Below are positions 40,626-43,274 of a DNA stretch of 64,000 nucleotides, piece by piece. The translations under genes were made by a program, and so were the position numbers. Positions within the stretch are counted from its first letter, which is position 1. Every line of letters begins with the position of its first letter. Source of the DNA: an uncultured Chloroflexia bacterium (GTDB taxonomy: Bacteria; Chloroflexota; Limnocylindria; Limnocylindrales; CSP1-4); the NCBI GenBank assembly GCA_963780375.1, contig CAWABV010000008.1, forward strand, positions 1,002,052 through 1,066,051, read 5' to 3'. The notes beneath the pieces were generated by a model that had not been told where the DNA came from, searched no databases, and saw only the letters and a list, made by a program, of their open reading frames with translations.

Positions 40626-43274
40626 CTACTCGTGCTGGCCGGGACCGAGCGCGGCGACCGCGCCGTGTCCGTCGTGGCCGTGTCCGTCGTGCCCGTTGCC
40701 GTTGCCGCGGGCACCCGGCGCGATACCCGTCAGCGTCGGCGGGAGCACCGGGAGCAGCCGGGCCGGGTCGTAGACGCGCCCCTCGGCGCGCGCTCGCTCC
40801 ACCCAATCGCGCTCGCGCCGGATGTACGTGACCTCGGTCTCCCTGTCGATCGCGGCGAGCGCGATGAGGTCGATCGCCGGGTCGGTCCGGCCGGTGTGCG
40901 AGAGTTCGAAGTCGGCACCGTCGCGCAGGGCGTCATACGGGCACGCGTCGACGCAGATGCCGCACAGGATGCAGCGGCTCTCGTCGACCTCGTACTTCTC
41001 GAGGACCCGTGGCTTGGGCATCAGGGCGCCGGTCGGACAGGTCTCGGCGCACCGACCGCACGAAACGCACGGTGTGTCGTTCAGGCTCATGTCCAGCGGC
41101 GTCGTGACGAGCGTATCGAAGCCGATGCGCATGAAGTCGTAGCACGCGGCGCCGACGACCTCGGCGCAGACGTTGGCGCATCGGCCGCAGTCGATGCAGC
41201 GCGACGGCTCGCGAAGGATGAACGAGTGCGAGTCATCGCGGATGTAGTCGTGGTTGATGCCGGTGAAGCGGTTCTCGGTGATCGATCGGTAGCCTGCGCC
41301 CTGGTGGTTGTTCGGCTCGAGCGTGGCGAGCGTGGTGCCGTACTCGATGCCGAGCCGCCGGAGGTCGCAGAACCCGATCGCCTCGCACGTGCACTGCAGG
41401 CAGCGGGTCAATTCCGCCATCGCGTCTTCGCGCGAGTAGGGCAGCTCGTACTCGATGTAGCTGCGGTTGCGCTCCTCCGCAGATAACGGCTTGAGCCGGT
41501 AGCGCGGCTCCTTCACCTCACCGGTGAACGGCACGATCGACAGGAACTCGGGCTGTGGCTCCGCCAGGGTCTGTCGCGTCCGGATCGCGTCGAGGTCCAT
41601 GCCCTTGAGGTAGGCGTCCACCGCATAGGCCGCTCGCCGGCCCTCGGCGACGGCCTCGACCACGGTCGCCGCGCCGATGCGCACGTCACCCGTGCCGAAC
41701 ACGCCGGGTCGGCCGGTCGAGAAGGTGACCGCGTCGGCCTTGAGCCGACGGTTCTTGGTCGCCTCGACGCCCTCGTTGCCCGGCGCGCCTGCCCAGTCGA
41801 GCTCAGGGCCCTGGCCGATGGCCAGCAGGACCCGATCGCACGGGATCGTGAACTCGGTGCCGGGCGCCGGCTCGGGCCGGCGCCGCCCGGACGCATCCGC
41901 CTCGCCGAGCTGCATCCGGATGAACTCGACGCCGGTCACCTTGCCCTTAGCGTCGGTCATGATCTTCGTCGGGCCGGCCTGGAAGATGGCGGTCACGCCC
42001 TCCTCGATCGCCTCATGGACCTCATCCGCCGCCGGCATGTCCTTCATGTCGCGGCGGTAGACGAGCGTCACCTCGCTGGCGCCCTGGCGGATCGACGTGC
42101 GCGAGCAGTCCATCGAGGTGAACCCGCCGCCGATGACGACGACGCGCTTGCCCTCGTGGCCCGGATACGGCAGACCGAGCGTGGCCGTGCGCAGGTACTC
42201 GAGGCCGTCGATGACACCATCGGCGTCCTCGTTCGGGATGCCGAGCTTGTTGGTGTCGTAACAGCCGATCGCGACCACGACCGAGTCGAAGCCCTGGTTC
42301 GTCAGGTCGTCGAGTGAGAAGTCGCGCCCGAGCCCGGCGTTGGTGACCATCCGCGCGCCGAGCCGCATGACCGACTCGTATTCGGCCTCCAGGACCTCGA
42401 TCTTCGGCAGCCGGTACTGCGGGATCCCGTAGCGGAGCATCCCGCCCGGCGCCGGGTCGCGCTCGAAGACGGTGACGTCGTGGCCAGCGATCAGCAGGTA
42501 GTAGGCGGCGGCCATGCCGGCCGGGCCGGAACCGATGACCGCGGCGCGTCGACCCGAGGTCGCCTGCGGCTCGAAGGGGACGGGCGGATCCACGCCGTCG
42601 TCGAGCATCGACTTGAGGACCTGGTCGCCGGCGTACCGATGCGAGTCGCGGATGGCGATCGCCTCGTCGACCTCGTCGCGCCGGCAGTGCTCCTCGCACG
42701 GAGCGGGGCAGACGCGGCCGAGCACGGACGGGAACGGGATCGTGCGCTTGAAGATCCGCGTGCTCTCGCGCCAGTTCGCCTCGGCATTGGCCTTGAGGAA
42801 CCCCGGGATGTCGATGTGGCTCGGGCACTTGTTCTGGCAGGGCGGCAGGCAATACGCGTTGTGGTCCGAGAAGATCAGCTCGAGGTTGGTCCGCCGCAGC
42901 CGGCGCACCTCCTCGGTCTGCGTCTGGACCTTCATCCCGTCCTCGCACGAACGCGAGCACGAGATCGGCGGATGCTCCTCGCCCTCGACCTCGACGACGC
43001 ACATCCGGCAGGCGCCGAAGCCCGGCAGCTTCGGTTCGTAGCAGAGCGTCGGGATCTCGATCCCGTTGTCGCGGCAGACCTCGAGGATCGTTTGGCCCTC
43101 GAAGCCCTCGACGACGCGACCATCGACCTCGATGCGGATGCGCGGCGTCGACTGCGGTCGCTGCGGCGCCTGTGTCTCGAGGAGGCGCTCCGCGAGGGAG
43201 GCGCGCGTCCCGGCCGGCGCCGATGCTTCGACGTCGGCGGCGCGGCGGTCCGGGCGGGCGAGCGTGTCGGTCAT
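40626..43274 (-). CDS. chimeric NuoG-position iron-sulfur flavoprotein: NuoG-type 2Fe-2S domain + GltD/NfnB-like NAD(P)H:FAD oxidoreductase module + NuoG/HydA-type N5/N4 Fe-S region + extra 4Fe-4S ferredoxin motif; no molybdopterin-like domain
   Basis: N-terminus: [51 protein letters not shown], a 2Fe-2S domain. GltD N-terminal cluster region: [22 protein letters not shown]...[12 protein letters not shown]. Dinucleotide folds: [16 protein letters not shown] and [19 protein letters not shown]. Then [15 protein letters not shown]...[16 protein letters not shown] and [16 protein letters not shown]. It is translationally overlapped with nuoF upstream and lies 3 nt from nuoJ downstream. Confidence 0.75.
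   Translation of the reverse strand: [882 protein letters not shown]

Follow-up and report, generated by a model that had tools for sequence, protein, structure and literature searches.

A candidate NADPH transhydrogenase-derived input module inside a split nuoI in the complex I operon of Candidatus Limnocylindria

How do electrons enter a complex I whose operon contains neither a nuoE/F/G block between nuoD and nuoH nor an ordinary nuoI between nuoH and nuoJ? The question is posed by a 64,000-nucleotide stretch of contig CAWABV010000008.1 (assembly GCA_963780375.1), hereafter the window, in which the genes on the minus strand follow the order nuoA-nuoB-nuoC-nuoD-nuoH-(225-aa gene)-nuoF-like-(882-aa gene)-nuoJ-nuoK-nuoL-nuoM-nuoN (aa, amino acids), with each assignment backed by Pfam (Table 1). 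The membrane subunits NuoA/H/J/K/L/M/N and the Q-module subunits NuoB/C/D are all encoded in this one operon, and no second nuoF-, nuoG- or nuoI-like gene is present within the 64-kb window. An original prediction made from this DNA had put the 882-aa gene in the nuoG slot of the operon; it lies in fact between nuoH and nuoJ, which is the place of nuoI, the canonical slot of nuoG being that between nuoF and nuoH. To judge from the sequences, the real novelty of the locus is a split nuoI that encloses an Nfn/Stn-like three-gene cassette in a nuo operon of the 11-gene type.

Domain organisation of the 882-aa protein

Searches of the 882-aa protein with Pfam models gave matches to Fer2_4 (residues 45-120, 6e-21), Fer4_20 (142-221, 7e-17), Pyr_redox_2 (244-545, 4e-30) and Fer4/Fer4_7 (736-784), as well as a weak match to Fer4_Nqo3 (686-751), and no match to a molybdopterin-type domain. 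The GltD-family models of NCBIfam gave values of 1e-93 to 1e-165, all under their equivalog cut-offs (311 versus 483 for TIGR01318), and the NuoG model TIGR01973 reached 98 bits, with a cut-off of 470, and covered residues 48-146 only. The four modules of the predicted open reading frame (ORF) were thereby recovered together with all the motifs quoted for them, as was a complete GltD-type FAD/NAD(P)H module with conserved folds in a NuoG-like Fe-S scaffold that lacks the molybdenum-bis(pyranopterin guanine dinucleotide) (Mo-bisPGD)-like domain. Two simpler identities were rejected. The protein is not a NuoG, since the TIGR01973 score is far under the cut-off, the N5 region is interrupted by GltD and the Mo-bisPGD-like domain is absent. 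Nor is it a free-standing GltD of about 470 aa with GltB as partner, in view of the sub-cut-off scores, the embedding of the domain in a NuoG-like scaffold and the lack of a gltB neighbour in the operon.

In 83 sequences from Limnocylindria and Thermoleophilia, little or no variation is seen in the FAD fold, the NADPH fold and the full set of 28 Fe-S cysteines; the cysteines of the [2Fe-2S] domain (C78/C89/C92/C106) are invariant throughout. The GltD/NfnB-like module comprises two [4Fe-4S] sites (C142/146/150, C189/193/197, H212), an FAD fold with the motif GSGPAG and an NADPH fold with the motif GGGF...VYRR. It breaks up the N5-type region of NuoG, of which H138-x3-C142 precedes the insert and C625/628/630/636 follows it; the latter motif aligns with the same motif in 9bov_A and 8oh5_C and is invariant among the relatives. 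The stretch beginning INHDY, read earlier as N5-like, belongs instead to a HydA/FdhA-type 2x[4Fe-4S] ferredoxin domain (C693-703, C736-746), which we assign provisionally to clusters A2/A3/A4 of NfnA. The position that corresponds to K170 of StnC, reported as the strictly conserved Lys ligand of cluster A7/C7, is occupied by an invariant His212 in the 83 sequences and by Lys in about 125 other representatives of the family.

In a search of all PDB sequences, residues 46-778 aligned as a single stretch to 9bov_A (1e-163), 9n5u_A (3e-143) and 8oh5_C (3e-138). The same three chains were at the top of a Foldseek search with an AlphaFold2 (AF2) model, which was built from an alignment of 56 sequences, was good for the 2Fe-2S and GltD parts and served the fold search only. 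By these alignments the first three modules (2Fe-2S, GltD and ferredoxin) match the established architecture of NfnA and StnC, the large subunit of Bfu-type NADPH-dependent bifurcating transhydrogenases, and do not represent a new type of chimera as had been proposed. The alignments to the PDB chains stop at about residues 758-779, and the place of the formate dehydrogenase-like domain of those chains is taken by the C-terminal half of NuoI. The last few residues (~855-882; 40629-40700, minus strand) form a Gly/His/Asp-rich variable tail, and many of the matches to orthologues end at about residues 848-868.

The divided nuoI and its companion subunits

The NuoI model TIGR01971 has 121 positions, of which positions 1-63 match the 225-aa protein and positions 71-115 match residues 756-800 of the 882-aa protein. 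The fourth 4Fe-4S motif of the original prediction is thus present (C768-C778), and it is specific to NuoI rather than generic. A weak phmmer extension across this motif raised the candidate of the [4Fe-4S] site in the formate dehydrogenase (Fdh) domain of NfnA/StnC, which was dismissed since the flanks match NuoI and not the Fdh motif. NuoI models cover only residues 1-82 of the 225-aa protein, which has a NuoI-specific N-terminus (…TIMYPE…KFRGRLQLL…) and one CxxCxxCxxxCP motif; the second such motif, with characteristic NuoI flanks, is located in the 882-aa protein. A NuoI in the form of one polypeptide with both motifs (N6a/N6b) was therefore not found, as motifs and flanks reside on two proteins, and these two proteins are the sole source of NuoI in the operon and the window. 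When joined artificially, the two halves yielded one colinear PDB match (query 9-133) to NDUFS8/TYKY/NuoI/Nqo9 with an E-value of about 1e-20. In the 2x[4Fe-4S] ferredoxin fold, each cluster is held by three cysteines of one motif and one of the other. Because each cluster draws cysteines from both motifs, the formation of N6a/N6b would require the association of the 225-aa and 882-aa proteins.

Beyond its NuoI part, the 225-aa protein contains a remnant of the helical N-terminal domain of NuoE/BfuC (Table 1). The cysteines of the thioredoxin-like 2Fe-2S (C1) domain of NuoE/BfuC are absent in 66 of 66 orthologues, in which only the cysteines of the NuoI motif are kept. The linker between the two parts (residues ~76-110; 44910-45020, minus strand), with the sequence DTRGRxHVHWGAPETYGERREESALRRSGR, is almost invariant in the 66 orthologues and had no match among the families searched.

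The NuoF-like protein is most similar in PDB to NfnB (9bov_B, 7e-90), 9n5u_B, HydB and StnB (1e-85 to 1e-89), with weaker matches to the NuoF chains of complex I (1e-67 to 1e-80). At about 430 aa (385-507 aa among orthologues) it represents the BfuB core only, consisting of Complex1_51K and NADH_4Fe-4S; neither the N-terminal thioredoxin-like domain nor the C-terminal 2x[4Fe-4S] ferredoxin domain of BfuB, which hold the B2-B5 sites, was detected with Pfam. Full-length BfuB proteins of 633-660 aa are found for comparison in Thermoleophilia and at locus L085 (see below). The B1/N3 motif reads CGK(S/T)IPC in 74 of 75 sequences, with the middle Cys replaced by Ser or Thr (the exception is L081 from Thermoleophilia); the fourth Cys is still present, with an invariant DHER after it. 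In NfnB from Caldicellulosiruptor saccharolyticus (Csac), the FMN/NAD(H) pocket is formed by loop 1 (GLRGRGGAGFP), Lys164, Glu274 and Phe294, of which Lys and Glu bind NADH. The FMN/NADH loop GLRGRGGAG(F/Y)P, the equivalent of K164, GEET and EGKRG are conserved across about 75 orthologues. The same site has also been remodelled in these sequences: NADEGDPG is always NGYGADP, and the adenine-stacking Phe (Phe294) has become His, Tyr or Gln.

The 882-aa protein has many close homologues (83-93% identity), which carry the names Candidatus Limnocylindrales or Chloroflexota, and no cultured host was among the ten clusters checked. The window had been attributed to Actinobacteria, which we reject because the relatives belong to Ca. 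Limnocylindria (Chloroflexota), although the sister clade is actinobacterial. In a scan of GTDB with one genome per species, relatives were encoded in at least 540 of the 600 matched stretches listed, and the best 80 loci were inspected with their flanks. Gene order, nuoABCDH-(I'E')-F-chimera-JKL(M)N, is kept in 80 of these 80 loci as far as their flanks reach, the longest contig measuring 2.9 Mb. The mean identity to the window among the Limnocylindria loci is 87% for the 882-aa chimera, 76% for the NuoI-N::NuoE' fusion and 70% for the NuoF-like protein. Mis-assembly, raised by the original prediction as a way to be wrong, is excluded along with a pseudogene or a recent foreign insertion, since the order is conserved in 80 loci and the residues are invariant or nearly so.

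The gene is, as predicted, an integral and translationally coupled member of the operon. The start codon of the ORF and the stop codon of the nuoF-like gene share the sequence ATGA (43274-43271), and the TAG stop of the ORF (40628-40626) is located 2 nucleotides (nt), not 3 nt, ahead of the GTG of nuoJ; the other junctions are also mostly overlapping or spaced by 1-2 nt. One database protein of 1075 aa (P0075) consists of the chimera fused to NuoJ (PF00499); given the 2-nt spacer, a frameshift error in sequencing or a read-through in that metagenome-assembled genome (MAG) probably accounts for it. The database names of the chimera are uninformative ('FAD-dependent oxidoreductase', 'formate dehydrogenase major subunit'), and orthologues are called 'GltD-like oxidoreductase/formate hydrogenlyase subunit 6 - NADH:ubiquinone oxidoreductase subunit I' in IMG.

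As for the remaining subunits, the Q-module looks normal in sequence: the N2 cysteines of NuoB (CC126/127, C192, C222) are all there, and NuoD carries the His and Tyr motifs of the quinone site (HPSTHG and GYLHRG). NuoB has an N-terminal extension of about 125 residues, rich in Pro, Asp and Ser, ahead of the Oxidored_q6 match; it is poorly conserved, and many tblastn matches to orthologues begin only at residues ~40-80. In NuoH, the 298-position Pfam model covers residues 61-440, which corresponds to about 80 inserted residues relative to a typical NuoH.

Table 1. Genes and domains of the complex I operon, in window positions
Feature	Position	Strand	Description
nuoA	49312..49677	-	Pfam Oxidored_q4, 3e-30
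nuoB	48560..49342	-	260 aa; Pfam Oxidored_q6 on residues 126-235
nuoC	48004..48558	-	Pfam Complex1_30kDa, 3e-38
nuoD	46726..47994	-	Pfam Complex1_49kDa, 3e-86
nuoH	45246..46592	-	448 aa, above usual length; Pfam NADHdh, 2e-104
NuoI-N::NuoE' fusion gene	44565..45242	-	225 aa; partial matches to NuoI and 2Fe-2S_thioredx
NuoI N-half	45003..45242	-	residues 1-80 of the 225-aa protein; C56-x2-C59-x2-C62-x3-C66-P
NuoE/BfuC N-domain remnant	44685..44870	-	residues 125-186; PF01257, 1.9e-9, positions 2-63 of 145
nuoF-like gene	43271..44563	-	Pfam Complex1_51K and NADH_4Fe-4S
NfnA/StnC-like::NuoI-C-half gene	40626..43274	-	882 aa; ATG start
HydA/NuoG-type [2Fe-2S] domain	42915..43142	-	residues 45-120; C78, C89, C92, C106; Fer2_4
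GltD/NfnB-like module	41601..42851	-	residues 142-558; Fer4_20, Pyr_redox_2, gltD-family NCBIfam, NfnA/StnC alignment
C625-x2-C628-x-C630-x5-C636 motif	41367..41402	-	NuoG/HydA-type scaffold resumes after GltD insert
HydA/FdhA-type 2x[4Fe-4S] ferredoxin domain	41022..41219	-	residues 686-751; C693/696/699/703 and C736/739/742/746
NuoI C-half	40875..41009	-	residues 756-800; Cys motif C768/C771/C774/C778
C-terminal tail of the 882-aa protein	40629..40874	-	residues 801-882; conserved to ~850
nuoJ	40030..40623	-	Pfam Oxidored_q3; GTG start at 40623
nuoK	39716..40033	-	Pfam Oxidored_q2
nuoL	37699..39687	-	Proton_antipo_N/M/C
nuoM	36047..37702	-	Proton_antipo_M; ATG start
nuoN	34551..36047	-	Proton_antipo_M

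Proposed electron route and competing explanations

From the observed gene order, domain homologies, NuoI split, residue conservation and phylogenetic spread, we infer how the module may be assembled, which cofactors and substrates it may use and in which direction electrons may flow. The reading that we favour, with moderate confidence, is that the input module of this complex I descends from a Bfu-type NADPH transhydrogenase situated inside the split nuoI, and that the complex pumps protons as an NAD(P)H:quinone oxidoreductase without bifurcation. The module would not have been inherited as nuoEFG but would stem from an NfnABC/StnABC-type enzyme, the three genes of which came to lie within the nuoI of a nuoABCDH-I-JKLMN operon. 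The N-terminal half of NuoI would have been fused to a BfuC/NuoE-like protein and the C-terminal half to the end of an NfnA/StnC-like protein, where it would have replaced a dead formate dehydrogenase-like domain. The two halves of NuoI would come together for N6a/N6b, by which the module would be tethered to the Q-module at both ends, and the N-terminal half would hold the NuoF-like subunit through the linker and the NuoE remnant.

In the NfnABC of Csac, the electron path is FAD-A7-A6-A3-A2-A1-[B1-FMN-C1], and the clusters A4/A5 (C1/C2 in Stn numbering) are described in the Nfn/Stn structure papers as a non-functional side branch, a 'dead-end remnant'. By homology to NfnABC and StnABC, electrons from NADPH in the Limnocylindria complex would be transferred to the FAD of the GltD domain and further via A7, A6 and A3 to A2. 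From there, the A4 branch would lead to N6a/N6b of the split NuoI, N2 of NuoB and quinone, while the NuoF-like subunit, with its FMN/NAD(H) site, would be reached through A1 and B1. With no Fdh-like domain to carry A5, and with the NuoI C-half beginning about 10 residues after the ferredoxin domain, the A2-A4 branch is the probable productive wire; if true, this would give a function to the 'dead-end' branch that puzzled the authors of the Nfn/Stn structures. The complex would then probably have two entry sites, one for NADPH at FAD and one for NADH at FMN. By our own reasoning, with menaquinone as the acceptor, the driving force is larger for NADPH, at its physiological potential, than for NADH. 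A similar driving-force argument has been made for 'Nuo-Bfu' (Schut et al. 2022).

The minimal bifurcation site identified in the Csac NfnABC work is B1-FMN-C1, and the absence of B2-B5, of which B3/B4 are the ferredoxin-reducing end, marks non-bifurcating homologues according to Schut et al. (2022). Because C1, the B2-B5 domains and one of the B1 ligands have been lost, the Limnocylindria enzyme is most likely non-bifurcating. The original prediction had named the right relatives when it suggested an NADPH-utilising or transhydrogenase-like module, NfnABC and StnABC having the closest solved structures; the electron-confurcating alternative that it added is unlikely in this lineage, where C1, the terminal domains of BfuB and one B1/N3 Cys are absent.

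Several observations weigh against an NAD(P)H:quinone oxidoreductase of this kind. The pLDDT values (predicted local distance difference test) of the AF2 model are below 35 for the Fe-S-rich residues 628-882, which makes geometry and cluster distances uncertain there, and an AF2 model of the joined NuoI halves from a single sequence had a pLDDT of 35 and is not interpretable. The A7 ligand is His where Stn and Nfn have a 'strictly conserved' Lys, which may bear on the redox potential of the cluster. The specificity for NADPH is deduced from a YRR-type motif shared with the NADPH-dependent StnC and NfnA. At the NuoF-like subunit, NADH oxidation is uncertain, as the site is remodelled, one B1 Cys is lost and the subunit is the fastest-evolving of the three.

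This last point is central to an alternative in which GltD-FAD is the sole physiological entry for electrons, while the NuoF-like protein and the NuoE remnant survive as structural relics, their one role being to hold the module together. The replacement of NADEGDPG by NGYGADP, the loss of the adenine-stacking Phe along with the B1/N3 Cys, the rapid divergence of the NuoF-like protein (70% mean identity compared to 87% for the chimera) and a NuoE without its cluster domain are all as expected for such an NADPH-only complex I. It is nevertheless odd for a relic that GLRGRGGAG(F/Y)P, the Lys, GEET, EGKRG, three B1 cysteines and DHER are strictly kept in about 75 orthologues, and an aerobic heterotroph could hardly do without NADH oxidation, for which reasons we consider the alternative unlikely. 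Quite improbable, in our view, is a complex that mainly runs in reverse, with electrons driven from quinol to NADP+ by the proton motive force (pmf) during trace-gas or lithotrophic persistence, or that serves as a membrane-anchored NADPH<->NADH transhydrogenase. The module does descend from reversible transhydrogenases, a single Fe-S chain connects the two nucleotide sites and complex I is known to be reversible, but an unregulated, ferredoxin-independent short circuit from NADPH to NAD+ would dissipate the NADPH/NADP+ disequilibrium, and there is no sign of gating in the sequence.

Bifurcation or confurcation in this organism, with NADH and reduced ferredoxin, or NADPH, reacting at B1-FMN-C1 to feed quinone, would agree with the homology to NfnABC/StnABC, with the 'Nuo-Bfu' complexes predicted in other phyla and with the full set of Bfu hardware in the Thermoleophilia sister clade. 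Yet the window and 66-74 Limnocylindria orthologues have no C1 [2Fe-2S] domain and a B1 that is one Cys short, and the N- and C-terminal domains of BfuB with B2-B5, the mark of Schut et al. for non-bifurcating homologues, are missing too, which makes this mechanism very improbable here. Hardly credible is an artefact, whether a chimera created in assembly, a pseudogene, or a soluble Nfn-like operon of foreign origin that has ended up among the nuo genes and functions apart from complex I. The unusual gene order is all that speaks for it, and that order recurs in the best 80 of 80 loci from different species, with relatives confirmed in at least 540 matched stretches; the ORFs are intact, start and stop codons overlap, purifying selection is strong, and complex I would be left without any NuoI unless the 225-aa and 882-aa proteins provide its halves.

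Sister lineages and relation to known systems

A scan of 1.84 billion representative proteins placed two related clusters, P0137 and P0241, among the best 150. The P0137 protein (816 aa) is 44% identical to the 882-aa protein and shares its NuoI C-half; the proteins related to P0137 come from MAGs of Thermoleophilia (Actinomycetota) and make up at least 120 clusters. At three Thermoleophilia loci (L081, at 7330-12451, L083 and L084) the order is nuoABCDH-(253 aa)-(633-641 aa)-(816-828 aa)-nuoJKLMN. Here, the 253-aa protein contains the NuoI N-half and a complete NuoE with the 2Fe-2S cysteines, and the 633-641-aa protein is a complete BfuB with the N-terminal thioredoxin-like domain, NGDEGDPG, CGKCVPC and the C-terminal 2x[4Fe-4S] domain. 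The NADPH fold is kept in about 110 of 120 Thermoleophilia chimeras, and a small subclade that includes P0137 has GDGF…SPC in place of GGGF…YRR. P0241 (L085:10001-13150) has 1049 aa, in which an NfnA-like chimera is followed by a half-ferredoxin motif and a 2-oxoacid:ferredoxin oxidoreductase (POR) beta domain with thiamine pyrophosphate (TPP). It stands at the end of a cluster (L085:5052-13150) of por gamma/delta/alpha, a half-ferredoxin::NuoE gene and a 660-aa BfuB, and here a 2-oxoacid:ferredoxin oxidoreductase seems to bear the same 'split-ferredoxin plug'. Six further NfnA-like proteins of ~810-850 aa (P0128, P0151, P0165, P0184, P0203 and P0234) stop abruptly at 'NN(V/I)DHCARL', the selenocysteine (Sec)/Cys position of formate dehydrogenase, and resemble FdhA selenoproteins with an inserted GltD domain that gene callers have cut short at UGA.

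In a neighbour-joining tree of the chimera family (648 columns, without support values), the proteins of Limnocylindria group with those of Thermoleophilia in a single clade, to which P0241 is sister, and all three have His at the position of StnC Lys170. Since the outgroup states both have full BfuBC, loss is the simplest explanation for the state in Limnocylindria. The Thermoleophilia operons, by their gene content, may encode a bifurcation- or confurcation-coupled complex I. More tentatively, the hard-wiring of an NADPH-linked transhydrogenase module through a split of NuoI may be a second, independent invention of the N-module. The Limnocylindria enzyme might then serve mainly as a proton-pumping NADPH:menaquinone oxidoreductase or, in reverse, as a pmf-driven generator of NADPH, with the FMN site as a side port for NAD(H), and the Thermoleophilia enzyme might handle four substrates (NADPH, NADH, ferredoxin and quinone) and couple bifurcation or confurcation to proton pumping through an intact B1-FMN-C1. 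Both Limnocylindria and the large Thermoleophilia clade are abundant, mostly uncultured bacteria of soil and freshwater, in which the input of reducing power to respiration may be mis-modelled; direct respiration of NADPH is raised as a testable idea, and a bifurcation-coupled complex I as a possibility for Thermoleophilia.

The literature outside subscription journals yielded no description of a GltD/Nfn-type subunit of complex I, of a split NuoI or of complex I in Limnocylindria or Thermoleophilia. The closest known proteins are NfnA of NfnABC (Caldicellulosiruptor saccharolyticus, 9BOV/9BP5; Thermococcus sibiricus, 9N5U) and StnC of StnABC (Sporomusa ovata, 8OH5), with 38-46% identity over about 730 residues. 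They have the same order of a HydA/NuoG-type 2Fe-2S domain, a GltD/NfnB-like module (two [4Fe-4S], FAD, NADPH), C-x2-C-x-C-x5-C and a 2x[4Fe-4S] ferredoxin domain, and there too the gene for the BfuB homologue is adjacent and that for the BfuC/NuoE homologue precedes it. They differ in having Lys170 as ligand of A7, where the window protein has His, and an Fdh-like C-terminal domain of their own (~450 residues; A5/C2, tetramerisation in Stn) where the window protein has the NuoI C-half. The B subunit of the window lacks the N- and C-terminal domains and one B1 Cys, its C subunit lacks the 2Fe-2S cluster and carries the NuoI N-half, and the genes belong to the operon of a membrane complex I rather than to a soluble three-gene operon. 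The Por-linked system at L085 shares the chimera, the His at K170, the extra half-ferredoxin motif and a half-ferredoxin::NuoE fusion upstream; its C-terminus continues into a POR beta (TPP) domain, por genes take the place of nuo genes around it, it has no NuoI-specific N-terminal segment and BfuB is full length (660 aa).

A GltD-related flavoprotein at the NuoI position has also been described in Mbx-like complexes of Thermotoga and proteobacteria (Degli Esposti 2015), so that a GltD-type NAD(P)H flavoprotein in this place of a complex I-related membrane complex is a shared trait. By description, however, that flavoprotein substitutes for NuoI in an Mrp/Mbx-type complex without NuoF- or NuoG-like parts, whereas the window still encodes NuoI, in two pieces, and has the flavoprotein as a portion of an NfnA-like subunit. 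The 'Nuo-Bfu' predicted by Schut et al. (2022) in Geobacter, Deferribacteres, Planctomycetes and Nitrospirae resembles the window in having a BfuABC-type module instead of NuoEFG in the middle of a nuo cluster. As described, it has an ordinary BfuA without an NADPH/FAD domain, no split NuoI is mentioned and the phyla are others; confurcation of NADH and ferredoxin was proposed for it, while the window module is without bifurcation hardware.

The canonical NuoEFG (Nqo2/1/3 of T. thermophilus, and E. coli) has in common with the window module a NuoF-like protein, the NuoE N-domain, the NuoG-type 2Fe-2S and ferredoxin region and the presumed role of feeding electrons via NuoI and N2 to quinone. 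It is encoded between nuoD and nuoH, whereas the genes in the window are located between nuoH and nuoJ, inside nuoI; moreover, N1a and the Mo-bisPGD-like NuoG domain are lacking in the window, a GltD FAD/NADPH module interrupts the N5 region, and docking would occur through covalent fusion to both halves of NuoI, as suggested by the genes. In the textbook view, complex I gained its NADH-oxidising N-module (NuoEFG) once. The different place in the operon and the fusion route of the Nfn/Stn-type module point to a separate recruitment, and the arrangement illustrates how soluble redox modules can plug into a membrane machine.

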